Origin: Obrimoposthia wandeli | Lineage: Eukaryota | DNA: 64,000 nucleotides | Reading direction: 5' to 3' | Assembly (NCBI GenBank): GCA_977020255.1 | Contig: CDROCS010000907.1 | Coordinates: forward strand, 62,001-126,000 | Shown here: positions 3,601 to 64,000 of the stretch, piece after piece | Layout of the letters: each line of letters starts with the position of its first letter | How positions within the stretch are numbered: position 1 is the stretch's first letter | Notes under the pieces: model-generated | What the model was told of the DNA's origin: nothing | The model's input: the letters and a program-made list of their open reading frames with translations, nothing else | The model's database searches: none | Made by a program: the position numbers and the translations under genes

Positions 3601-6600
3601 ACCCACTCAGAGTGACGGACCCTGACGCTGCCCCCTCTGCCGCCACACCCGCTACCAGGACCTTCCCAGACTACGCAGAGTGGGGAGAGAACTTGTACAG
3701 CGAGTGCATCAAGAACATGCTGCGTCCGCTCGACGATGCCAACTGCATCCCGCACGTGAGTCTGCACTGGTTTTTCTCCAATTCGGTTGAGTCTTATTAA
3801 ATTATAGATCAGTGGAAAAAGCGAGTCTATTAAGGTTCGTATCTGTAATACATTTTCAGATAATAAAACTTTAAAATAATTGAAACTAATAATAATACTG
3901 AATAATAGTAAAATTAACTTGGTTTGCTTTATTCGAAAACTTTCTATTTCCTTTTTTTACTCAAGATATTAATTACAATTTTTGATTCTATGAAAAAGTG
4001 AAATTTAGTGAAACTCGAAAAGTTAACAGACTTTCGATATTATAATTTGTGGTGTAAATAGACTCCACCATAACCGATTTTTGTGGGGAATTTCTTTGTT
4101 TGTCAAAGGTTTGTGAAAAACTGTAGAATTTTTTTTTTAATAATTACGGCGCTGCTGTGGAATTTTAATATATTCATATGCGTAATTTAAAGGGTTCCAT
4201 AGTCGCGTTCTGACCAAAGATCTGTTGCAACAACTGAAAAATTGTAAACTTCATAAAGAACTTCTACTGAAATTGGTCTTTTTACTTCTATTTGATTTCT
4301 AAATTTCGATTGTGTGGACAGTTTGTTAAGTTGGTCGTAAATGGAAACAGCAAATATATTTATTGGAATTTACTTTTATCAACTTTTCAACACGCTGTCA
4401 CTGACTATTTGCCGATAATATTTCAAATAGGTTGTCAAATAATCTTAAAATGTATTCTGTCTATGGAAAGTACAGAATTTTCAAAGCTGCAAATTTGTAT
4501 TATCTCCTCTGTTTTGTCTTTGTCTAAAACTACCCAGAAAGAAAATTTATTTCTCTATCAGGTATAAACTATTTATTTACATTTTTAAATTGCTTACGCA
4601 TTTTTTAAAATTGTTCTAAACAGGGTATAAAACGCATTTTATTGTTTTCTATAAATTTAATAAACCATTGTAACACTTTTGTCTCTGCAAATCGATTATT
4701 TTAGTCGGTTTTGTTTGTCGCTAACATACCCAGATTAGTCAGCTTTAACTGTATTCCTTGTAAATTGAGTTACTTATTCTACTACTTATAAGTATGAGTA
4801 TGATAAATGCAATTTTCCGATTCAGATTAGCAGTCGCAGACTCAATGCTGATGCATGGAATCATGGTACGCTGCTGTTGCTCATTGAACTGCTGAAGCTG
4901 TCTAATGACGAGATGGAGACGAATAGGTTGAAGCTGGAGGAGATGATTGGTCTGGTTAGTGTAGACTCACCACTTGCTTGAATTTTCTTGAATTCTTTCT
5001 TACTTTTAGGGTTCTCCTAAAATTTGAAGATTTTTTACTTGAAATTACGAATATGTATAGCATGATCGATTCATAATTAAACATTGACTTAAACGTAAAT
5101 AAGCAATAAACAGTGTTTGTTTCTTATTGAATATTGCGTATACACGTTTATGCCAGTTCAGTATCACACAGAATTACAATATCAGTTACATTCATCACAA
5201 ACAGGTCTTTGATTGGAAGGGTTTTTGCCACATAGCCAGACAATACAATTACAGTAGTGTGAAATAAACACAAAAAAGTCAACGATATACAGTTCCTGAG
5301 ATACTTATGTTGTCAAGATATGGCTACTTCTTTACAACCGAGTCCAAAAGGGTTAACAGAAAACGTTTACAATGATTAATGTGTCATTTGTATATTTATT
5401 ATTCTAATCAAGTTGAATTAAAAACTTCAAAATAACGAAATTAAATGGACTAAGCCAATAGTTTCGTATATCTGGGTTTTACTGTACGTACCAAAATAAA
5501 TTATCTTTTACCACTTCATTATTACAACCTTAAGTAAGTAAAAATTGCTTTGATCAGAAATAAACTACATCAAACAGTTTTATGGGACTTAAAGATACGG
5601 CCAATGGCATCAAATTCTACTAGCATATTCTTTTGACTTTTGTTTAGATAGTTTTTTAAGTTGATGGAATTTATGCTAATTAATTTAACTAATTAATTCA
5701 GAAAAGCATGGTAATTTAAAGCATGGGAAACAAGTTATTTAAAAAAGTTATTAATGTTGAAGGACAATTTAAATGATGATTTCTAAAATTAAAAACTCAC
5801 AACTATCGGTGACAGCTTCACTTCAAAACTTGATAATAGCAGCGATTTATATATTATTATTCGACAGATAATTAAATTATATACATTTTTGATTTTTCAC
5901 CCTTAAGAAATCAATTCATTTTGTTTAAATAAGTGTTTATTTAATATTTCTAATTACTTTAGAATCAAAAACTTAGATTTTTAACAAATTTATCACATTA
6001 TTTTTGAACGTTTATATTATAAAATAATTTAGTCTCAAATTACATTTATTTTATAAGATACACTGTAATTTAAAATTAAAGTTTGAATTCTGTAAATAAA
6101 TCACATGAAATTATATTTTAATTCTAAATTTAAGATTTGCGTTTGATTTAAATATTCTTTAATTTTAAACATTATCAATTGGCAGTATTCGACCGTTTTC
6201 CTCAGTGAATTTTAATTTTTTAAAATAAAAATAAAATGAAATAGGTCATTTATTTTATTATTTTAATATTTAATATTTTGAATTATAATTGTTTATTTTT
6301 AATGTAAGCATTAATTATAATGTCGTCATAGGCAGAACGCATAAAGATAGTATTGATATATATTATTGTATCATTGTAATCCGAAGCAGTTTAAAAACAA
6401 TATTTAATAAAACATATGACTATTTTAATGCATATGGATTATTATCATACAAAAATTTTCCAAAAATTTATAATCTTTTTATTAATGAATTTACAGAGAA
6501 AAAATAAATGGTAAAACATTCAAAAATAAAGTTTTAACTCGACTTAATTATTTTTATCAGTTTTTAGCCTCAATTGGCAGTATTCGACCGTTTTCCTCAG

Positions 6601-47711: not shown

Positions 47712-49110
47712 TACATGTAATAGTTATATTGTACAGTCATGAATTGTATTCATTACACATAAATTAAAATGTTAAAAATCTATGTATCTTTAAAAATACT
47801 GCGTTTGACTAAAATCCATAATAATTATAACTTTTAGGAAGGTTCATTTTCGACACTGCCTATTAATTTTATTATCACCTTATTTTATACTTTTTCTGAA
47901 TAAACTTATATATTATTAAAACTAGAAATGGTCATACTTATGTACAACTTATATTTGGTATCCATTTTCTTAGATTGTGTCAAATTTTTGTAGTGGAGCA
48001 TATTCCTGATACAAGAGTGTGTTTCGCAAGACGAGAATTTTAAAATAATATTATTTGACACGTCTTTTTGAGTTGTTCAATGTTAAATTAATGTAAACAA
48101 ATTCTCTATGATTTCTCATTAATTATTTCAATTTACCGCTTTTGTCGTGCTGTATTAACATAACGAATCGCCGTCTTCAGTTATTTGAAGCGTTTTTGAC
48201 TCATGCAATCACAGAAATAAAGCACGAAAAAAGGTAAAATTTAAATATATACTCAAAAAATATATAACAAACGACGGTGTTGAACGGCAAAAGGGATAGC
48301 ATCAGTTTTTCAATGCGAAATTGATATCGGAATAAGAAACAAAATGCACAAACACAGGCATTAATTCATTCTAGAGGAGTAATCAAAGGATCACCAGGAA
48401 TGTAGAAGATTATCGCTAAAGTTATATTTTTTGAAAGAGTTGTCTTGCTTAATCGACCAAATGGGGAGAACTATTTTATGCACAGACCCATTTCTTAGCT
48501 ACTAGTCGAAAAACATGGCACGATGCATATATTTTAACGAATTATTTGGAGATTGAAAAAGGAACAACAATTCAATAAAACACCACCAACGTGAAGCACT
48601 TCCGAGACCGTTCATATTAAGATTAAACATTTCAAACACCAGAATTACAAAATAGTAACACATTAGATTTTGACTATAGTGACGATATTCCAGAATAAGA
48701 AATTGCCAGAATAAAAGATATCGCTGTAGTTAGAGGATATATTTGAAGTAATGCAAGAAATAAAAGAATGTGACGAACAATATTGGAAACTGACTATTAA
48801 ACATACAAAACTTATAATATTAGCTAAAAGAGAACTTTTTGTTATAAAACAATGATAATATGTCATAAATGACACAATTGTAAAAAGAAACGGCAAATTA
48901 ATCACACATACTTGAGTTACTTGGACAATTCTGGAATGATTCCGCATCATAATCATTAAGCTGCAAAAAAGTTTGAAAATGGAATTAACAAACAAATTCT
49001 TATCGCGTAATTTAGTATTCAACTATACATTTTGGAGTAAACATGATACGCCGAGAAGGGAATATAATTGAAGCACAACAAACAGCAGATATTATTGGAG
49101 TAAATAATTT

Positions 49111-52100
49111 TTGTCGATTTGTCGAAGAATAATAGATCGACAAGTGAGAAACATTAGATTTCACTATCCAAACAAAGGAAGTGGACCGACAGAGTGTAAT
49201 AATTCGATAAATACAATATACCATATGGGAAATATAAATGGAGCGCAGCGACCAGCAGCTATCATTAGAGTAAATAATTTAAGAGTAAAAGCCTTAATTG
49301 ATACAGGTGCTGTAGCTTCGATAGTAAGTGAAGACTGTTTGACAGAGGAACAGAAACGAACAATGGCAGAACCAGATGAATTCTTGGTATCGGTCAATGG
49401 AGACCCTGTTAAAGTGACGGGAATATTACCATGTACATTTATAATTGGGCGTAACACGATCACTATACCAGTTAGAATCATGAAAGAATGTCCTGAACCT
49501 ACAATTTTAGGAATGGATGTACTATCACAACTTAAAGGGATAAGTATTGATTTACAAGATCCAAGATTGAAGGATAGCACATCAAACAGACAAATAAACC
49601 AAATTGATGTAATTATAGAGAATCCTATAAAAATCGGTAAAAGATCACAATTTCTCATTCAAGGTCACACATTATCAGAAGATAAAGGACCAGTTGTGTT
49701 CGAACCATCACGAGATTTCATAGAGAAATACGAATTACCAGTTGTGAGTACAGTATGTCTGATCGAAAACCACAAAATACCAGTTAGACTGATGAATACA
49801 ACCAACAATGACATTCTATTATACAGAGGAATGAGGTTGGGAAAGATAGCACAGATGGAGAATCCCACCGTGTGTGCTATGAAACTCGATAAAGATACGA
49901 ATGATTATGAAGAAATAGTAATCCAATCAGAAAGACTGACAACTAGAGAAAAGAAACAATTACTTGATCTATTACATAAATTTCCGAAAGTAATTGCAAA
50001 AAATCCATATGACATAGGAGAAACACCTGTCATAAAACATACAATACCACTGACAGAAGACAAAGTAGTCAGAAGAAGACCATATCGAGTACCATTACAA
50101 TTACAAGATGAAGTAAAAAGTCAGATCGAAGATATGTCTAAAACAGGAGTAATTAGACCGAGTTTTTCGCCATTCTCAGCACCTGTGGTGTTGGTAAAAA
50201 AGAAGGATGGGAAAATGAGATTCTGTATAGATTTCAGAGAACTGAACAAGATCACAAGAAAAGATGTGTATCCATTACCTAGAATCGAAGAGATGCTCGA
50301 TAAATTGGGTAATTCAGATTATTTTACGACATTGGATTTGCAGAGTGGATACTGGCAAATCGAGATAGAGGAAGAGGATAAACACAAAACAGCCTTTTCC
50401 TGCGGAGATGGATTATACGAATGCGAAAAGATGCCATTCGGACTGACAGGAGCTCCAGCAACATTTCAGCGTTGCATGAATTTTGTGCTAACATCGTGTG
50501 CAAACACGATGGTTTATATTGATGATATCATAATATTTTCTAAGACGTTCGAGGAACACCTAAAAGACCTTGAAGTTGTATTTAAAAGACTGGAAAATGC
50601 TAAATTAAAAGTTAAACCTACAAAATGCGAACAGGCTAAGGAGCGAGTAAAATTTTTAGGACATATAGTATCGAAAGAAGGTATCCGACCTGATCCAGCA
50701 AAGATCGAGAAAGTAAAAGCGCATCCAGCGCCAAAGACTGTTAAGGAAATACAGAGTTTTTGGGTCTTGCGAACTATTATAGACGATTTGTTGAACAATT
50801 TTCAGATATAGCAACACCATTGAGAAAGTTGACGAGGAAAGATGAGAAGTTCATATGGGAAAAAGAAGCACAACAAGCGTTCGAGCGGATTAAGGAAAGA
50901 CTGATAAAAGCACCAATATTAGCGTTTCCAGATATAAACCGACAATTCATACTAATGACAGATGCAAGTAACTATGCTGTAGGAGCAGTATTGGGACAAG
51001 AGGATGACAAAGGAAGAGAACACGTCATCGCATATGGAGTAGAGGGTTAAACAGAGCAGAAAGAGGATACTCTGTTATTGAGAAGGAATGTCTAGCCATA
51101 GTATATTCATGTAGACAGTACAGACACTACTTGCTAGGACAAAACGTATTCCTGTATACAGATCACAAACCACTACAGTTCTTGTATAAACATAGAGACG
51201 AGATGAGTAGATTAAACAGATGGTTTCTGAAATTGGCCGAATTTGATCTAGAAATCCGTTATAGAACCGGAAAGTCGAAGGGCAACGCAGATTGTTTGTC
51301 GAGATTGATAAATGTAGACGAGAAAGGAAACATAATTCCAGAAGAAAGTCAAGATGAAGTCAGTGACCAAAAAGGAGAAGCAAATCTACTAACGATTTTG
51401 CTGAAGACGGGTAAAATAGAAAAAGAGATCACCAAGGAACAGAAAGAAGATGAAGAACTGAGTCTAATCAAAGAACTGTTAGTGAAAGGAGATCTAAATG
51501 ATGAAATGACGAAAAATACTCGATGAAAAAAGGAATCTTGTATATTGTCAACAATGTCGGAAAGATAGTAGTAGTAATTCCGAAGTCATTGAAAACAGCA
51601 GTGAAGATCCAGTATCACGATGGAACACTGGGAGGACATCTGTCAGGACGAAAGACAATAGCCAGAATCAAAGAGAAGTACCATTGGGATGGTATGGAAG
51701 ATGACATAAAACTATGGTGAAAACAATGTAAAGTATGTTTAACCAGAAAAGACACTGGAACTCGTACTAAAGTTCCACTGAAACCGATGCCAGTTCCTTT
51801 GGCACAAATGGAATTCACAGCGATGGATATATTGGGATCATTGAGAGAATCGAGTAAAGGAAACAAGTACGTCATAGTATTTACGGACTACATGACGAGA
51901 TGGGTAGAAGCATACCCCATGCAAAACCAGAAGGCTGAAACAATAGCGCAGATCTTAGTGGAAGAGATAATATTTCGATACGGAGTGCCTAGAAAGTTAA
52001 TAACGGATCAAGGCAAGAATTTCACTGGAGAAGTAATAAAAGCAGTATCAAAGATATTTGGAATCATCTTCATTCTTCACCATATCACCCACAAACCGAT

Positions 52101-52745
52101 GGTCTAGTAGAAAGGTTTAATAAAACTTTATGTATCATGGTACAATCTTATTGCTCCGATAAGCAAGAGGATTGGGATAAGTATTTACCTTCATGTTTAT
52201 ATGCTTACAGGAATTCAGTTCGAGAGGCGACGGGTCACACACCATTCTATCTGATGTATCTCAGACAGAACAATATGCCAATGGATCTGGAGTGAACCGA
52301 ACCAACATATCAGTACCTAGAAACTGAACAATACATTGTCGTCATGAAGGAAAGACTACAAGATGCTTAAACTAAAGCAAAATTGAAATTGAAATTCAAT
52401 CAAGAAGGTTACAAGGAACAATATGACAAAAAGGCAAAACCACATGAATTTAGAATCGGAGATCAAGTGATGATATTTTACCCAGTCATCGAACCAGGTC
52501 TATCGTTTAAACTTCACAGACCATACAAAGTACCATACAAGGTGATACAGACAATTTCAACGAACTTGAAAGTAATCAACGAGGAGAACCGGAACAAGGA
52601 AACAATGATTGTACATGCGAATCGATGTAAACTGGTACCGAATAAAGATAATGCGTCACGATATGAGCTAAGATCACAGAAATTGAAGCTGAATACCAAT
52701 ACTATTAAACTTACACGAATGATCGAAGTGATCGAAACTACATAA
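49111..52745 (+). pseudogene. pol: Ty3/gypsy pol (protease-RT-RNase H-integrase), disrupted
   Basis: LIDTGA protease; RT (PFSAPVVLVKKKDGKMRFCIDFRELN, LDLQSGYWQ, MPFGL, YIDD); RNase H (LMTDASNYAVGAVLGQ); integrase HHCC (GGHLS...C..C), core (FTDYMTRW, LITDQGKNF) and GPY/F-like tail. Gypsy domain order; frameshifts near 50760, 51050, 51520 and 52100. Confidence 0.95.
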
Positions 52746-52750
52746 ATACG

Positions 52751-55700
52751 ATGACAAGTGGTAGCGATGAAAAACCAGCGAGAATTGGCATGCTCAGAAT
52801 GAAGCACCAAGAGGAACGAGAAGAAATCCGACACATCGCATCACAAGAGATATTAGAAGAAGACGAAGAGATCATAGTCGTTTTCGAAAGAACACAACTA
52901 ACAGATGTGGCGAAAGAAGTCAGTGTAAAAGATGCACTAACAAACGAATTTATGTGCGAACTTAGAGTGTCATATTTCAATGGAAATACACTAGTCGCAG
53001 AACTGCATCAAAACTCCAATGTGTTTACGACTGAGAAAGTGATAATAGAAATCACATTGACATCAAACATAGTTGCATGGCAGAACTATGACAGTACCGA
53101 AGCATGACTAGCCAGTCAGGAAGAAAAAGAACCGGCCGGTGGTAATATACTTCATGGTACACCAAAAAGACTCAAACAGGAATACCATGATGTGATAATG
53201 GTATTACGCAATTCACATGGGAAAAAAGATATAGTGAGAGTTCATTTAATCGACGCCGACACAAAAAAGATAATATGTCAGATGGTCACCAAATACTTTG
53301 ATGGAAAGACCATTGTATGTAATATACCGGTATCTCACCAATTGAAAACAGATCAAACGGAAGTATTTGTAAGGTTGAGCGTAATAGAAGGATTCCATTC
53401 GCCAACCCAACCGGAAGTAACAAACAATAACATCGTTGAAGCAACGGCAGAGTTACGCATTAACAGCGGATACCGAAAGTGGGAAGCTAAAAATAAACCA
53501 CAAAGAATCAATATGATCAGAGAACAAGCGACAAACTCAATCCAGCCAATATATCATGCTGAAATAGTATCATCTGCGCCAAGTGTGATTACATCGATAA
53601 ACGACGAAATTATAATTTTACTAAAAAATCGATGGCCATCATCAACCGAGATACGAGTCAACTTAGTGAATTATGCAAAAACACCGATATCTAAGCTAAA
53701 TGTCACCTATTTCGATGGATTGTCCATCATGGGTAAATTGGAAACAATTGTCATGTGCTATGGAGCACAGTTCCAAGTTGAGATAATTAAGGATAGTGTA
53801 ATACCTTATTAGATTCATAGAGACTCAGGACCAGTCAATCCAATTATTCTAACCCCTTCATTAATTTCAGTTCAAACAGACATACCAGAACACCCTTCGA
53901 GCGAGTCTAGTCAAGACAGCGAACCTGAAAGCAGCGATCCAGAGTCAACAGAATCCGAAGACAACATAATAGAGCGATTTGGAAGAACCATGGAGGTTGA
54001 ATTCGCCAAAGAAAACAGAAAAAGATGAAACATAGAATTCATGGAAAAGAATATACAAGAAAGACGAATTAAATCCGCAGAAGAGACCGAGTCAGAAGAG
54101 GAACTAACGAAGGAACAGACATCAGAGACAAAGATGAATATCTCTCCAGCAATACGAATGCTGAGAGGAAAGAAACTGGCGAAATTATTCATCATAGATG
54201 AACAAATAGAAAAGCGATTAGAAAGACTGAGACTTGAGGAATCAGAATTGATGCCACCAATGAGTGAGATAATTCCAGACATGTTATACCTCGGAAATGT
54301 GGAAGACGCAACAGACGAAAAGAAACTGTTGGAAAAAGGAATAACATATGTGATCAATGTTACAATGAATCACTAATCACGATACAAGACAATCAGAGCT
54401 ATGACATTAAGAGTGAAAGACTAAATGGAGGCTAATCTTCTCGAATGGTTCGGAGAAACAAACGAGATAATTTACAAAGAACTCCAAAACCAAGGAAAAG
54501 TATTGGTACATTGTCAGAAATAAATCTCTAGATCAGCAACCTTGGTATTAGCATATCTAATAAAGAGTAGGCGAATGCAGGTACTAGAAGCGCTGAAATA
54601 TCTACAAGAGAGACGAAGTATCGCGAACCCAAACCTTAATTTTTTGGGACAATTGTCAAATTACCAACTCTTGTTGCAAGAACGGAGACGGATGGATGAC
54701 ATTCCCGAAGATCCAAAGGAAAAGAATTTCCTCCAATCACTATCGTTGACCGGATTATTCTTAGTAGGAGTCGTTAAAATCACCCAGATAATGCCGCAAG
54801 TATTTCTATGTCAACCAATAGATATAGATACTACTGGATTGAAGTTCCACAGTATCAACAGAGTGATTAACATTGTTGAATTCGAAAACGAGATAATCAG
54901 TATATGTCAAAATACTGAAGATGATAATACACGTTATATACATGCTTCAAATCGGGAGGTAACCCACGCACAACTACACCTGAGGAAGTTGACTCAAACT
55001 ATCCAAGCCAAAGTCACAGAAAGAAACGGCGTTCTGATATATCAGAAAAAAGGTACAATGTTAGCACCTACCATAGGTGTATCCTTGTTGGTAGAGTACA
55101 TCAGAGGAAACGATGGTCTACATCAAACAGAATAGACCAGATACGGAATTCAAACCGTTACTCGTTCGAGAAATATAGAAATACTCCGAAAGAAGGTAGC
55201 AACAACGAGAAATGAATGAGTTTTCAACAACAGTGCCCAGCTATCAGTACCGAAGATTGCTAGCACTAGCTTGTTAAGTTGTCTAATGCCAACAACGGGA
55301 GCACAAGAGATAGGCTCCAACCACGGAAATAATTCCTGGATCAAAGAAATCAACAACTACATCATGCAGTACAATACACCGACACTGATGATGCTATTAG
55401 TGTTGATAGGACTGATCGATGTTTGGCTTATCAGAAAATGTATCCGATCCATAAGAACCGACATAGAAAGATTCCAGTTTGTAAAAATGAAGAGATCAAA
55501 CGGACCAACAACCCAAGCACTTGTTTATCTAGACGAAAGGATCGAGGAGAACATAGTGAATGAAGCAATATATTATCCACAAAACAGACGACTGAATCAA
55601 TTCCGAATGGACTATGAAGCTGACCGACAGCGCACACTCGATAGAATATCAGCAACGTTTGCAGGATGCGGGCTTGTAAAATGAATTGTAAAGGAAATAC

Positions 55701-57580
55701 AAAAAGATGCAGATACAAAAGGTACGACGTATATATTCGACGGCGATGTCATCAAAACACGTGAGTATGGAAGTAAGAGAGTGATAATCGAAACGAAGGA
55801 AGGACATAAAACATGCTTGTCCGCCAAAAATGGATTCGGAAAGCTGGTGATACAAGGTAAACAGGTACAGTTGATTATCGGGAAAGCCGGAGTCGAAGAA
55901 ATGTCAAAACAACGCCAGACAACCAAGACAAAACGACATGACCAGAAACGGGTGTATCTGAAACGAATAATAATCAAAACCGTTTTGAAAAGGACGACCA
56001 AGGCCCTGTACACTGTCGCACAAGGATTGATCTACGGAGTAGTAATTGGATTGGTACTACAAGCCATTCCAACGAGTAAAGCTGAATTGATGACGCTACC
56101 TGAATATAATCTACATTTGAGAAATCTAGATAACACCCTAGAAATAATCAAGACGTCTCACAGTAAAGCCGTGATGATCACGTGTGTGAAAGGATATCCA
56201 GAACGAGTATATATAATACCAGCGACAGAAATGAAAAAACTAAATGGATATTATGGAGTTAATGTTGTCACATGTGAAGGATACACATTTGTACAAACTA
56301 AAATAGTACATATCAGTGACATGTCCAAACAAAGTACACATAAATTTAAAATATTAACCATCAAAAGTAAAGGGATACAAGCAATACGTTATGGTATTCT
56401 AGAATTGGTTAATCCAATACTGGCATTGATTATCGGAATCATAATATTAATACTACTCCTCTTGTTTTGTTGTACAAAGATCGAGCTGAAATCAAAAAAG
56501 AAACGTCATGATCTCGCAAGACGAACAGGTAAAATTAATTTACAAAAATTCGACACAACTATACCAAGACCAGCATTAATAAATGAACCAGCACCGGAGT
56601 ATCAGCCAACGATATATGAACATATCGAGGAAAGACCGTACTTCATGAGTAACTTGAGTTATCCCAGAGAAGTTCCTGAGATTCGGATTCGAACGATAAT
56701 AGGAATCATGTTGATCATACAAATCACCACGACCGAGGCTGGTTACGAGATCATGATCAGTAAATGGAGACAAGATACGATACGTGCGTTATACATAGAA
56801 ATACCTATACTAAAAACGAATCACATAGTAGACATTCAACTACAAACATCCGCAACCGAAAATGTCGATCAGAAATTGTATGTCATCCGCCAGATTGAAA
56901 TAAAGATTGACAAACATACACTTTACTACCGACTGATACTATTCTATTATGAAAAGATATTATACCTACGAATAACAATATCAAAAAAGAAACGGATTAT
57001 CCAAATAATCCGAACAAAGTCAGTAATATTGCCTAACGACGAGCGCATCTGGAAAGTTATTGACAGGATTATGGTCACAGGTAAACGACGTAAAACTGTA
57101 TGGAATTCTGTTAATTTATTCTTCAGATTGTTAGAAACTGACCAGGTAACAGTGGCGTGTCCCAATCCAGATGACGGAATCAAATTCGCAATACAACGCC
57201 AAATGTTAGTACCACATTATGATGCAGAATGTCTATGTAACCGAATTTCCAGTGATGCTAAAGAGACCTCTACCGTAATCATAGTAATAACAGGTGAAAT
57301 ATTCTATATAACTCTAAGATACCAGACACGTTGATTTCGTGGACTAGGTATGAGCATCAGACCCAAGAAATTCAATTCCGGGAAACCAAACACAGTCATA
57401 AAGAAGGCAAAGGTGAAAGGAAGACAGCTCCATTCCGAGAAGCCAAAAGCAGTCATAAAAAAAGGCAGAGGTGAAAGGAAAATAGCTCGATTCCAGAAAC
57501 CAAAGCACAATTATCGAGAGGTCAAGAGTGATGGAAACGATTCCACTGGATCTCAAATCTCGAATAATAATACCCTTTAG
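52751..57580 (+). pseudogene. Single ~1,610-codon post-pol frame (TIG-like x3, DUSP, multi-TM env-like polyprotein) with ten internal nonsense codons
   Basis: ORFs 52751, 53192, 54041, 54542, 55271, 55781 and 57350 share one frame; the gaps between them contain only isolated stops (53105, 53810, 54026, 54374, 54422, 54521, 55133, 55217, 55682, 57332). Confidence 0.85.
54260..54680 (+). pseudogene. Dual-specificity protein phosphatase (DUSP/VH1-like) domain within the element polyprotein
   Basis: MSEIIPDMLYLGN...GITYVINVT...RVKD...GKVLVHCQK*ISRSATLVLAYLIK...EALKYLQERRSIANPNLNFLGQL: the full DSP fold motif set, with HCx5R interrupted by a stop. Confidence 0.92.
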
Positions 57581-57699
57581 ACAAAAAACAAAATATCCGA
57601 TACTGCGATTTATTAGAAAATCAGACATAATACACGGAAACCGAACAGCACCAATGGTAACGCCATCTAAACCAACAAACATCAAAATAAAATCAATCC

Positions 57700-57906
57700 T
57701 CAGACAGCGGGATAACTACAGTCAATGCTTTAATTGTAATGGCCGTAGTGTCAACTGCAGTAGTTCTTTTGACAGTCGTGTGCGTGAAAGGCAGTCAGGT
57801 ATGCCCAAGAATACGACGAAGATGCAAAGAGCTACGATGCTGTAATACAACCATGATGGAGGAAGTGGAATTGCGACCCTTACCTCCGCCTCCCATCAAG
57901 ACATGA
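57700..57906 (+). pseudogene. Frameshifted C-terminal transmembrane anchor and Cys/Pro-rich tail of the polyprotein
   Basis: SSDSGITTVNALIVMAVVSTAVVLLTVVCVKGSQVCPRIRRRCKELRCCNTTMMEEVELRPLPPPPIKT*. Confidence 0.6.
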
Positions 57907-58033
57907 CAAGTCAGAGGAGGTTGTAGATAAATTAGTGTGTAAAAATATGTAGAGATATATAGAAGCGAATGTACAAACAAGTGTAGAATCATGTAAAATT
58001 CATGTAGAAATTAATTGTCATCATGTATTTAGA

Positions 58034-58723
58034 ATGTCTGAGGAATGCCCAATATGTTTGGAAGATATAACCGAACGAAGAACAAGACCCAATACATGCA
58101 ACCACCTACACCACGAGGAATGTTTATCAAAATGGATCCCAACTTATGGAGAGTTTCCCCATCCAACATACCCTCGTTGCCCTGTATGCAGAAGACAATT
58201 CACAAAGTTCATCATAATAGAAACCAACCAAGAGGATGTAGATGTACAGGTGGAATTTTGTTGGAAAAATTTGAGAGAAAGTTGGTGTGTATATTCTGTA
58301 CAGCAGAACGACAAGATCCGACCACTTTTGTGTAAACATCACACAACAACCAACCCTAAATCGAGCCCAAATTCAACATCACCCTCTCACAGCAATGTCT
58401 GGAGAATGTTCCATCTGCTACGAGAACATCGTGGACCTCTACACCAAACCCAACAACTGCGAACACAAATTCCATGTCCAATGCCTCGAGACATGGATCC
58501 CAGTTGTCAACAGCAACAAGCCCCTCGACTACTCAACCTGCCCGATGTGCAGGGCATCCTTCTCGGTACACTTCGTATACAACCGAGACTGTCTTCAAGT
58601 AGTGGTACCCATCGTACACTGCTGGAAGGACATCTGCGACTGCTGGTGCATGTTCTGCGCGGAGGAGCGACGCACAGGCCAGTCCGACAGCCAAAAATAA
58701 TCGAAGGTAACTTTTTGAAATAA
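58034..58723 (+). CDS. RING-H2 finger protein 1 (putative E3 ligase)
   Basis: MSEECPIC...TCNHLHHEEC...W...CPVC, a C3H2C3 pattern; the 3' part overlaps RING 2 in another frame. Confidence 0.85.
   Translation: MSEECPICLEDITERRTRPNTCNHLHHEECLSKWIPTYGEFPHPTYPRCPVCRRQFTKFIIIETNQEDVDVQVEFCWKNLRESWCVYSVQQNDKIRPLLCKHHTTTNPKSSPNSTSPSHSNVWRMFHLLREHRGPLHQTQQLRTQIPCPMPRDMDPSCQQQQAPRLLNLPDVQGILLGTLRIQPRLSSSSGTHRTLLEGHLRLLVHVLRGGATHRPVRQPKIIEGNFLK
58395..58700 (+). CDS. RING-H2 finger protein 2 (putative E3 ligase)
   Basis: MSGECSIC...NCEHKFHVQC..TW...CPMC plus a Cys-rich tail HCWKDICDCWCMFC; frame intact. Confidence 0.88.
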   Translation: MSGECSICYENIVDLYTKPNNCEHKFHVQCLETWIPVVNSNKPLDYSTCPMCRASFSVHFVYNRDCLQVVVPIVHCWKDICDCWCMFCAEERRTGQSDSQK

Positions 58724-59017
58724 ACGTGACATCATGAACTAACCCTGTGTATCGCATACCGCGGTAAAATAGCTACCATAATTGTAATCATATTTGTATA
58801 ATCTTGTGAAACTGTAAAATGACCTTTACCAATTTTATGTATGATGTTTATTTGAAATTGTAATTATTATACTGGGAAACCCTAAAGACAATTTTATACT
58901 TAGAATGCGAAAAACATACCCAAAGAAAAGACAAAAATCGGTAGGTTAAAATATTAAGGTTTAAAATCATATAAACTTCAAATAAAAAAGTGATTTAACC
59001 GATACACCATTGTGCAA

Positions 59018-59547
59018 ATGATATGCTCGGTGTGCCTAAACAAAGTTCGGGACTCCTCGGCAATCCCTGCCGGGTGCCGACACCGATTCCACGAAACGTG
59101 CCTCTATATGTGGGCCAAAGCTCGACCCGCCGGCAACATCACATGCCCGATGTGCGAGCACCTTTCACCGAGTGGACGATCCAATGCTGTGGACGTTCAA
59201 AGGGCACCCGCTCACCTACCAGCTGTATTGGTGGCGAGTGGTGTCGATGCCCCATCTGTCCTGTGCGCCGTCGTGACGCGCAGCGCAATGTACGAGAGGT
59301 GTGGTGGTCTAGCCGTGATCACCACTCGTGGCAGTACGCTCGGCGAGTGTGGCTCAGCAACCATGAGCAGCACAGTTCCGGCACCCCTCTAATCCGTTAA
59401 AGCCCGCATCTGAATATTTTCCAGCAGCTAGGGCTTTACCAGGGTGACACTCCAGTGTTCCCAACGTTGCCCCTGGAGCGGGTGATGCTGTTCCTGGAGG
59501 AGCGGAATAGGCCAGTGGCCACCATCAACTTAACAATGGATGACTGA
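59018..59547 (+). pseudogene. RING-H2 finger protein 3, 1-nt frameshift near 59155 and stop at 59398
   Basis: MICSVC...GCRHRFHETC..W...CPMC; the shifted frame continues RAPFT (compare RASFS and RRQFT in the paralogues) with a Cys-rich tail. Confidence 0.8.
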
Positions 59548-60336
59548 TGGAACACTGACACTTTACCCTTTCCTTCACCTTTTCCTTCTCTTAACCTTCT
59601 CATTCTTAAAACAGTCATTTTTGTAAAAATACATGTCAATGGAATATTTGTTGACCATTTCCGAATTATTCGAATAAGACCGAAAAATACCAATTCTTGT
59701 CAACTAGTGGGTATGTTGAAGAGTAATTGAATGTTTGAAATTAAGTGGGGATGTTTTTTCTAAAATCTGGGATTAGTAAATTAAAATCGATACGTTCCGA
59801 GGACGTAACTTTTTTGGAACCCTCGAGATATGTTAGGATTAGGTTTTGATTAATTTAAAATAATTAATCATTTTTATACTAAAATAAAAATCCTTGAAAG
59901 CAAGGTTACAATTAAGATAAAATTAATTATAAAATTAAAATTATAAAAATAAAACCATTGGAAAATATTAGGACCACGAAGGCCATGTGTAAGCATGTGC
60001 AGTATATATAGATATTTAAACTAAACCAAAGGCCCCAAGAAAAACAGAAGAACTTCATTAAAAAGACAGAAACACAATCAAAGAAACATCGAAAAGGAAT
60101 CAAGGTAAGAAATATTAGCATTTAGCTAAATTAATTTCTTCCATATAGAGTGCTCGACAAGGAAACGAACACCGGACTCCATTAGTCATCAGTGGGAGCC
60201 AGCAGATGATAGTCTGCCGAAGAAACCGATTCAATTAGACCGATTCCATTAGGACTGTCACAGGAGGTGAATTTCAATATAAAAGAGAAATTACTTTATT
60301 TTTAAGAAAATATAATCCAGGAGTGAAATTTGGGAA

Positions 60337-60483
60337 CAGAAAGTCAATTTGAGAACTCGTCGATCTAATCCGAGTAGGAGAATAACAGAAAGTCAATTTG
60401 AGAACTCGTCCATCTAATACGAGTAGGAGAATACCAGAAAGGCAATTTGAAAGCTCGTTTATAGAATCCGAGTAGGAGAAAAC
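60337..60483. repeat. Three 49-bp tandem repeats
   Basis: CAGAAAGTCAATTTGAGAACTCGTC...GAGTAGGAGAATA at 60337, 60386 and 60435. Confidence 0.9.
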
Positions 60484-60692
60484 CAAAATAATTAGAGAAG
60501 CAGAAAAGGTGGGTCTGCAACGCAGAAAGCGAATTAACTTTCCTTTTTAGAAATGTAGAAAGGAGACAAAAGGAGGTCTTGTTACACAGACATCTGGGAC
60601 CAGGGAACTCGCACCGGACGCAGCTATCTCGGATTGAGGAAGACGCACTGCGAACTTGCACCAGACGTGCAGGCCTATCCGGAGGAAGGTAA

Positions 60693-60960
60693 GAAGTGCG
60701 AATTGATTTTATTCTAAAATAAGTGTTGTATTGAAGTAAATTTAAACGAAGAAGTGCGAATTGATTTTATTCTAAAACAGTGTTATATTAAAGTGAATTT
60801 TGAACGAAGAAGTGCGAATTGATTATTTATTCTAAAATAGTTTTTTTTTATTGTTGAATTTTGATAAAGAAGTTAAAGTAAAACTTGAAATTGCCCTATA
60901 TTTTACCGTTGAATTTTGATAAAGAAGTTAAAGTAAAAACCCTAAACTGCCCATATATTT
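60693..60960. repeat. Three 58-bp repeats followed by two 55-bp repeats
   Basis: GAAGTGCGAATTGATTTTATTCTAAAA at 60693, 60751 and 60809; GTTGAATTTTGATAAAGAAGTTAAAGTAAAA at 60853 and 60908. Confidence 0.88.
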
Positions 60961-62399
60961 AGAGTAAAGACTCTAGTTAACAAACGACCCTCAATTAAAA
61001 TCGATACGTGGACCATCACCAGTTGTGTAGAGACTTGTGAATGTCTTAGGAATAGTATTGTCAATTTTAGAACGTAATTAGAACGTGTTTAGCTTAGTGT
61101 GTCTAGTAATAAAAGATTTCCTACAACTAAACAGCGTTGTTATAGACCCTTCAAATTTAGAAATAACAAACCTTCAAATAAACTTAGAGACAGGCAAGCA
61201 TAACATTAAGTAGGCCACAAACATCTACAAGCCCTGCTTCTATAGAACTCACGTTGGGGCCTTCCATTCAGAGGATCTATATTAAAAAACAGTTTCATAT
61301 AGAAACCCCAACAAAAAGATAGATTAAAAAAAATCTTCTAACAATTAAAGTCTAGGAGAGATTTAGATGGACTTGATATTAATTACTTAACAAGATACAC
61401 AAGTTATAAAAAATCAAATTTTACTACTAAGAACAATTCTCATCATAAAAGGTCATAACCATAGAGTATATGCTCTACTGGACTAAGTCATAACAACTAG
61501 TATTATTAGTGACTAAGTTGTTGACTATCTAAATGTGAAGGGCTATATGGAGTCAATACCTATTTGAAAGATTGAAAGAAGAAAAAAGTAAAAGAGTTGT
61601 TAAGTGGTAAGCTGCAAAATTGAAAGTTATAATATACAAATAAGAAAATTTAATAGTGTTTTGGCGATTAAACAAACATCAGCCAAATTAAATGTTATAT
61701 ATATTGGGAAGATGCAACAAGACATTGAAATCATCTAAAATGAATAACGTTTCTTTCGATAGGAAAAGCAAGACATCAATAAGCTCCTTGGTTCGGACAA
61801 AATTGAATTACAGCGGTCTATTATCTTGTCGTTAGAAATAGAGGTGATCACGTAGACAGATTAACTTCACTGAAGTAAACATGCATATGAAGAGTAAAAG
61901 TAAATAAAGCTGTACAAAATCAAACAAATTTCATTCACACGTTGTCAATAAATACTGAGATTGACGTTCAATTAAAAAAATTAAGAAGTGGATAATATTA
62001 AAAATATATATGAGACGTCTTAAACCATTAAAGACTTATATATCAATCAACAACTAATTCATTACCTGAATGGATGGTCAGTACTCAATAAAAATCCAAG
62101 GGAACAAAATAAAAGTAAATTATTTTTTAATAATAATTAAAAAAAAAATTGTGCTAAATAATGATGCCTTGTTGAAAAGGGAATATGAAAATTTTGTTAT
62201 TATTTACCAGTTTTTATGACCTTAATAAAGTAATATATTAAAATTTTGATTATTTTTTAATTAAGCCTTACATTTACAAGATTCAATTATTTACTGAGTT
62301 TCAACCTGGATACTGTTGTATTTGTTATGGCTTTGAAAATATTAATGTTTATATATCAGATATAATTTTTATCATATAATAGGACAATTTTTTGGAAGC

Positions 62400-63030: not shown

Positions 63031-63840
63031 AATTGTTGTATAGGTTTTGTATGTAGAATTTCAGTAACTCGTTTTAAGTAGTCAGTGGTAGGGTAGAGTT
63101 GAGATTGATTTGAGGTGAGCTGTTTGAGTATGTTGAGTATGTTGAATGTTTTTAATACTTCCATGATTTGTTTGTTGGATGATATGATTAGATTATGGAG
63201 GACGTATGTTCGAATTAATGATCGCTGATTCACTTGTGTTTGTGGGATTCATAAATTGAGTCCAAATATTTTATGCACCTCTACATGATTGTGTTTAGGT
63301 GAACTTGTTTATGTCTGGCTATATAATATATAACATTGTCGATGTTTTGAAATATAAATTGAATTTTGATTTGGTTTCTTAGTAATGCTGAAAGGTATCG
63401 AAAATGTTTTGTTGCAGGAAAGGACTGATACCTCTCAAAGTATTCCTCAAACTATGTCGCAAATATCTGCAGTATATTCAATTGCAGAGGCTGTTCTTAC
63501 AACTTTGGAACAAGAGGAATGAACAAGCTCATTATTGACGAAAAATCAAATGCAGATATGGATAAAAAGAATCATAAACACTCCCACTGTGCATAAAAAT
63601 TTAGCTTTCTGATTAGAAGTATAACCATATTATTTTTGATATTAGAAAAATTTATAAAATTACATTATTGAGCAGTGTAATATTATCATAATTAATAATA
63701 GTAAATTATTCTAATAATCATATTTTGATATGTTTAAATAATAATGTTATCTTTCCGGAATTTTAAAATTTATAAAAAGTGAAAAAGATTCACAAAAAAT
63801 AATTTTTTAACATGTATAATTCCAATATTTCAAGAAGTAG

Positions 63841-63982
63841 CTTCGAAACTCCTCGAATGGCGGAGTCTATCGGGTCATCTCAGAATTCAGATGATGACTT
63901 CGACTCAACTAATATGATGAGACGTGACCGTCGCAGAGAATTACATACTCAAGCTGAGCAAAGGCGAAGAGATGCTATTAAG
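63841..63982 (+). CDS. MLX: Exon of a Max-like protein X (Mlx) bHLH-zip gene; continues beyond window
   Basis: MAESIGSSQNSDDDFDSTNMMRRDRRRELHTQAEQRRRDAIK|gtattt matches the Mlx basic region HTQAEQKRRDAIK; acceptor at 63834 or 63840. Confidence 0.85.
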
Positions 63983-64000
63983 GTATTTTAAATTAGATTT

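Follow-up and report, generated by a model that had tools for sequence, protein, structure and literature searches.

The window analysed here (64 kb of Obrimoposthia wandeli genomic DNA) carries a 5'-truncated copy of a large LTR retroelement, and between the stop of its polyprotein and its 3' LTR lie three small RING-H2 genes, designated R1, R2 and R3. The features concerned are:

49108..52745, + strand: Ty3/gypsy protease-RT-RNase H-integrase, interrupted by stop codons and frameshifts (5'-truncated copy)
52709..57906, + strand: accessory continuation of the polyprotein (dual-specificity phosphatase, hydrophobic segments, unknown domains), ending 127 nt before R1
about 54280-54670, + strand: dual-specificity phosphatase, in the polyprotein after the integrase
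58030..58032, + strand: splice-acceptor-like YAG, 1 nt before the R1 ATG (87/87 distinct copies)
58034..58335 (end approximate), + strand: RING-H2 gene R1, 99 aa in most sister copies
58390..58392, + strand: splice-acceptor-like YAG, 2 nt before the R2 ATG (90/93 distinct copies)
58395..58700, + strand: RING-H2 gene R2, 101 aa, built like R1 and with an open frame in the window
59015..59017, + strand: acceptor-like YAG position, 0 nt before the R3 ATG (87/90 loci), absent in the window copy
59018..59547, + strand: RING-H2 gene R3, 176 aa in most full-length sister copies
59521..59544, + strand: SIM-like motif T-[IV]-D-L-T-hydrophobic-acidic at the C-terminus of R3, one residue differing in the window copy
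59831..61313, + strand: 3' LTR (TGTT...AACA, 1,483 bp), starting 283 nt past the R3 stop

A tandem triplet of C3H2C3 RINGs at the 3' end of the element had been proposed in a first-pass annotation, and three RINGs were indeed found there, each scoring 34.5-35 bits against the Pfam zf-RING_2 cut-off of 27.3 and each with all eight ligands (C-x2-C...C-x-H-x2-H-x2-C...C-P-x-C, with His at ligands 4 and 5), i.e., all are of the RING-H2 (C3H2C3) type. When all six frames of the 64 kb were scanned with a loose RING pattern, only three matches emerged, at 58046, 58407 and 59024, the ATGs being at 58034, 58395 and 59018 and the stop of the R3 frame at 59547. The gaps from polyprotein stop to R1, R1 to R2 and R2 to R3 are 127, 60 and 317 nt. 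Given that the 3' LTR, whose limits were set where sister flanks diverge, lies beyond them, the RINGs are inside the element. R1 consists of a RING, a beta-hairpin and a C-x6-C-x-C-x2-C-x3-R tail, and R3 of a RING, a hairpin, a C-x5-C-x-C-x2-C tail, a helical extension and the SIM-like end. The shared start of two of the genes described earlier is that of R1 and R2 (ATG TCT GAG/GGA GAA TGy), and the continuation CPxC-R-x-x-F-(S/T) ascribed to all three needs no correction in R1 and R2 and shows in R3 only across a frameshift. Likewise, the Cys/Trp-rich tail holds for R1 and R2; that of R3 has cysteines only and is followed by ~90 more residues. Third-position GC is 0.34 in R1, near that of pol (0.27), versus 0.72 in R2 and 0.63 in R3 (0.63 also in one host exon), a difference that might stem from unlike origins or histories.

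The window copy itself is defective, being 5'-truncated with R1 and R3 broken: family homology starts at 49115 and the 5' half is missing. As had been noted before, R2 is intact (58395-58700 open) and R3 has lost a nucleotide: near 59154 three sister copies have 1 nt more than the window, whose R3 frame is shifted as a result. Overlooked until now were a frameshift in R1 near 58293, inside the Cys/Trp tail (again versus three sister copies), owing to which its ORF extends to 58723, a premature stop in R3 at 59398-59400, and the absence before the R3 ATG of the acceptor-like AG present in about 98% of copies. A decayed piece at 48520-48920, about 68% identical to sister BIR-region DNA, abuts the 93-95% identical part at 49115, and we interpret it as an older subfamily fragment joined to a younger copy.

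Sister copies fill in what the window lacks. Their 5' LTRs are followed by a primer-binding-like site, which presumably matches a tRNA, and the protease-RT-RNase H-integrase order, TG...CA LTRs and primer-binding site identify a Ty3/gypsy element (5' LTR and primer-binding site in the sisters only). Scanning of 15 sister ORFs recovered Gag with a CCHC knuckle, a fusion glycoprotein (Monjiviricetes_fusion, E 1.1e-70), a second protease-like domain, a BIR (E 3.2e-11), a C3HC4 RING of IAP type that shares its frame with Pol (protease and RT), and a weak ubiquitin-like segment (E 0.014). The accessory region continues from the integrase as long open frames ending shortly before R1, and the phosphatase motif HCxxGxSRS is present in nine sister loci. 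A second, degenerate phosphatase-like stretch apparently follows the first (L153:5413-8580), and the second aspartyl-protease-like domain lies between Env and BIR (L057:2600-4429, L053:2300-3559), giving two protease-like domains per polyprotein. Additional ORFs adjoin element copies in L053 and L054, which we take, from motifs, to be Maverick/Polinton-like.

By domain content the element is a Burro-like, Env-bearing giant Ty3/gypsy (Gag-Env-BIR-RING-Pol-phosphatase). The planarian Burro/GYPSM1 elements, as described in PMC6431247, likewise have thousands of copies, a Gag with CCHC knuckle, a ubiquitin-like segment, accessory ORFs and a common theme of ubiquitin and apoptosis. The polyprotein layout of Burro, with BIR and RING domains and an Env that sits in frame after Gag and before Pol, is found here as well (PMC6431247). 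However, Burro exceeds 30 kb and our element is estimated at about 21 kb, from contig C6318, the only copy with both LTRs placed and one with a deletion in the RING region. No Pfam match to the Burro domains MATH, BCL2, ankyrin or dUTPase was obtained in the 15 sister ORFs, which come from fragmentary copies, and the passages on Burro in PMC6431247 mention neither a post-integrase phosphatase nor three free 3' RING-H2 genes.

Exact patterns counted genome-wide gave 9,549 R1/R2 tails and 4,538 R3 starts (0 for reversed-pattern controls) and therefore roughly 4,500-4,800 elements, a number that assembly duplicates may inflate and from which decayed copies are missing. Similarity searches returned at least 150 copies for each of R1, R2 and R3, and almost every locus with room for all three shows the same order and spacing. 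Thus, the suggested survey of sister elements shows the triplet to be fixed in the family. Some insertions are recent, as the two LTRs of one pair (L060/L062) share 98.9% identity across 964 nt. The cassette is still rearranging: in copies L194, L200, L205, L036 and L192 deletions have fused R1 with R2 or R1/R2 with the end of R3, or R3 is partly duplicated.

All three frames are under purifying selection. Pairwise dN/dS is 0.39 for R1 (codon bootstrap 0.26-0.58, n=59), 0.24 for R2 (0.16-0.36, n=51) and 0.30 for R3 (0.24-0.36, 26/27), versus 0.72-1.52 in shifted frames, in sets of natural full-length copies that were filtered for open frame and tail motif and partly ranked by similarity, the pairs not being independent. 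A genome-order subset picked by tail pattern gave 0.50, 0.22 and 0.25 (n=10, 13 and 10), and the signal persists after CpG codons are dropped. dN/dS decreases as dS increases, as expected if selection acts while the element replicates and is then overlaid by neutral decay once copies have inserted. The RING-H2 signature, including the I/V, W and P positions, which we assume to contact the E2, and the R/K that we take as linchpin, is complete in 47/59 copies of R1, 42/51 of R2 and 21/26 of R3, and from these intact residues we infer that R1-R3 have E3 ligase activity. That the genes belong to the element, as was originally assumed, is borne out by their position inside the LTRs, within the replicating unit, and by this selection.

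In-element duplication of a single RING gene had also been claimed. The proteins are 35/99 (R1-R2), 27/91 (R1-R3) and 30/94 (R2-R3) identical and there is no meaningful similarity at the DNA level, thus any split is old. RING cores alone are of little help, as scores among the three equal those against the best outside RINGs. The tails of R1 and R2, on the other hand, match by themselves (hhalign E 1.5e-11; 0/5,000 shuffles reach the score), and on this ground R1 and R2 are clear paralogues, duplicated within the element. For R3 the claim stands only as likely: its tail similarity to R1/R2 is not significant (hhalign probability 3-8%, with shuffles reaching the score in 109-2,092 of 5,000), and its dS (0.66) is far above theirs (0.15-0.21). 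In the phylogeny that had been proposed as a check (54 RING segments, 70 columns, 40 of 245 outgroup rows selected), which proved uninformative, R3 does not fall with R1/R2 and the three genes are not grouped, though a single clade is not rejected (p-AU 0.42). It could thus be argued that only R1/R2 are a duplicated pair and that R3 was captured separately or recombined from another element, its cysteine spacing being convergent. We consider this unlikely, given that the same 23-residue spacer separates the last RING Cys from C-x5/6-C-x-C-x2-C-x3-R in 55/59 copies of R1, 53/57 of R2 and 30/32 of R3 (sets pre-filtered for the tail motif but not for the spacer), that this motif is absent from the best 150 library matches listed and from 95 distinct viral and metagenome RINGs, and that P-x-x-C-x-H and CPxCR-x-x-F are common to all three genes. 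With the same tail cysteines at the same spacing, R3 probably derives from the same gene as R1 and R2. Neither the 30 top zf-RING_2 loci nor the 30 retrieved with a PHRF1/Topors-like query, lists that element copies dominate, included a host donor.

A YAG triplet immediately before each ATG suggests how the genes might be expressed. It stands at its fixed offset in the copy counts listed above for all three genes, versus 20/200 ATG triplets of the upstream element, and at R3 starts it is present in 4,440/4,538 cases genome-wide. The CAG before R3 is 0.96-1.00 identical compared with about 0.4-0.7 at positions upstream. That this CAG merely encodes Gln was rejected, as its third base is held at 0.96 and in-frame stops lie upstream. 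The R2 YAG is preceded by a pyrimidine-rich, AG-free stretch, with no other AG in the prior 25 nt in 91/93 copies. The signal is weaker for R1, because there the entire upstream stretch is conserved. Since three different offsets (1, 2 and 0 nt) cannot share one coding exon, the leader upstream would be non-coding, pointing to separate spliced or trans-spliced mRNAs for R1, R2 and R3. Each gene would then be translated from its own subgenomic mRNA, the leader coming either in cis from the LTR or by spliced-leader trans-splicing. No conserved perfect donor was detected in the LTR: AG|GTAAG occurs in 7/51 LTR starts, and the sites at 60105 and 60689 were dropped as leader donors for this lack of conservation. 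Reads of the four sequencing runs examined cover introns and look like DNA. LTR elements typically express their extra 3' ORFs by splicing (PMC5408684), and flatworm spliced-leader trans-splicing resolves operons with gaps near 100 nt (PMC8629364). Orf a and orf b of the walleye epsilonretrovirus and the ORF3s of rotifer LTR elements are comparable in being accessory genes whose subgenomic transcripts are spliced (PMC3185748, PMC5408684), and the title of a reference in PMC3185748 speaks of a duplication; however, these genes encode cyclin-like or other proteins, and RING has 0 occurrences in PMC5408684.

AlphaFold models show a RING and beta-hairpin in R1 (pLDDT 70.7, tail under 50) and a RING, beta-hairpin and helical extension in R3 (pLDDT 75.6). 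Fold searches of both against solved structures returned generic RINGs, those for R3 being the weaker matches. Among viral folds (Foldseek), the 99-residue R1 model, of low confidence in its tail, was closest, at modest E-values, to ICP0 proteins (E 3.7e-5, the best, and TM 0.59) and baculovirus IE2/PE38, and the R3 model had no match reaching E 0.001. ICP0, IE2, PE38 and CG30 have a RING followed by a beta-hairpin, as here. Nevertheless, the ICP0 RING is C3HC4 in a protein of several hundred residues, whereas R1-R3 have His as fifth ligand (C3H2C3) and only 99-176 aa and fall outside the ICP0 family; identity to ICP0/IE2/PE38/CG30 is 18-26% and the Cys tail was found nowhere else, hence a resemblance and not membership. 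The nearest language-model neighbours of the cassette RINGs (0.90-0.94) are small RING-H2 proteins of Nucleocytoviricota and Preplasmiviricota, and on some viral contigs two small RING-H2 genes lie only a few kb apart, yet the Cys tail occurs in 0/95 of the viral and metagenome RINGs and there is no sign of a specific donor. A word-index protein search with R2 gave no candidate, a profile search of 1.84 billion representatives gave only generic RINGs among the matches listed (best single-domain score 56.8 bits), scans of IMG/VR and metagenomes gave 39 and 63 loci matching in the RING core only, an atlas search with R3 residues 48-176 was uninformative (best 0.77), and the R1/R2 tail has no Pfam match. 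The Cys tail is a candidate new zinc-binding module.

R3 further differs in its C-terminus, where a SIM-like [IV]DLT end is found in 33/39 long ORFs; one R3 lineage stops before it. The motif Leu uses five codons and the residues just upstream are variable, and because the codons vary and the residue is fixed, constraint acts at the protein level. A RING and a SIM-like sequence in one chain, as in SUMO-targeted ubiquitin ligases (STUbLs), occur in R3 only, its SUMO binding being a prediction; a complex prediction of R3 residues 128-176 with a flatworm SUMO scored 0.26, short of the 0.34 mark, and speaks neither for nor against it. A SUMO exon had Macrostomum (78%) and Trichobilharzia (77%) as its named matches, among only five candidates, and a flatworm host is probable on this basis. 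The [IV]DLT core with acidic residues after it recalls RNF4-type STUbLs (VDLT in SIM2/SIM3 of RNF4, VIDLT in PIAS1; PMC3901395). However, RNF4 has several N-terminal SIMs and R3 a single C-terminal motif with T first, R1 and R2 having none. ICP0, for its part, is described as pairing its RING with a SIM to counter intrinsic silencing in the manner of a STUbL (PMC3174244).

Taken together, we consider that the three genes encode separate small RING-H2 proteins, outside the polyprotein, that are likely virus-like accessory E3 ligases, and we put the whole explanation (cassette, duplication, splicing and host-directed ligases together) at about 0.68. A captured RING gene with a cysteine tail would have duplicated inside the element, the copies diverging long ago. 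Their RINGs would recruit a host E2, and the hairpin and Cys tail, in R3 also the extension and SIM-like end, would select substrates; the divergent tails and the SIM-like end of R3 hint that each gene has different host substrates, as was initially supposed. By analogy with ICP0 and IE2/PE38, their likely purpose would be the removal of host restriction or silencing proteins, alongside the IAP module and the phosphatase, and three ligase-type genes under selection, each with its own likely splice site, suggest that the element tampers with host proteins as large DNA viruses do. We tentatively extend this, at well below even odds, to an ICP0-like counter-defence operon, in which one transcript would give three E3 ligases as separate, possibly trans-spliced mRNAs and one of them, a SUMO-targeted ligase, would destroy SUMOylated piRNA or heterochromatin silencing factors and so aid the thousands of copies. 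Planarian Burro is silenced by a nuclear PIWI with H3K9me3, according to PMC8532177, and piRNA silencing in Drosophila is described as needing SUMO.

The ligases might instead act on the element's own products (Gag/Env maturation, budding, or turnover of the IAP or ubiquitin-like domains) and not on host defence, since the same polyprotein contains the ubiquitin-like segment (E 0.014), BIR, IAP-type RING and fusion glycoprotein. We find this rather improbable, as the viral RING look-alikes act on host proteins (PMC3174244) and a related Env-in-frame element (L154) has no RING match in the ~3.5 kb past its integrase, thus the core cycle may not need RINGs. That the RINGs are zinc-binding adaptors, dominant-negative E2 decoys without ligase activity or dispensable passengers would suit the mere 100 aa or so of R1/R2, with no recognised substrate-binding domain and a tail lacking a Pfam match, but is very doubtful in view of the purifying selection in all three, the retained E2-contact and linchpin positions, and YAG sites conserved across subfamilies, which is not expected of pure passengers.

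To our knowledge, dedicated counter-defence proteins are rarely known from animal retrotransposons. What is new here is the conserved YAG before each ATG in a selected RING-H2 accessory cassette of a giant retroelement. A full-text literature search, in which most papers were judged by the start of their abstracts, yielded no description of an LTR element with free RING-H2 genes at its 3' end, nor did the relevant text of PMC11410931, though Grohme 2018 (Burro), outside its coverage, may show such ORFs. The account of Burro polyproteins notes RING, BIR and ubiquitin themes, openly suggests tampering with host ubiquitination and calls for tests (PMC6431247); a selected, separately expressed ligase cassette would make that suggestion testable with proteins of 100-176 aa. 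Should R3 prove to bind SUMO, a protein made by a transposon would be tied to the piRNA silencing that depends on SUMO.

Several other elements and genes were encountered. A different Env-in-frame gypsy family (L051:4141-9790, L154:416-4799), with RT DNA about 65% identical and no BIR or RING matches, carries a 3' RNase T-type exonuclease ORF. Loci L126-L151 represent a large family of single-ORF RING-H2 genes of about 320 aa, in tandem arrays on many contigs, with tails unrelated to those of R1-R3. L231 and L233, presumably BEL/Pao-like from their motifs, have a ubiquitin domain inside the polyprotein but were discarded as relatives, being another LTR type with no RINGs in the part examined. 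Within the window, a multi-exon PIKK gene at about 11100-47075 (+), which we take from motifs to be TOR-like, has GC-rich exons, AT-rich introns and a FATC in its last exon; the RING element follows it on the same strand after about 2 kb. Just beyond the element is an exon (63812-63991) that presumably resembles the start of an Mlx-type bHLH gene.
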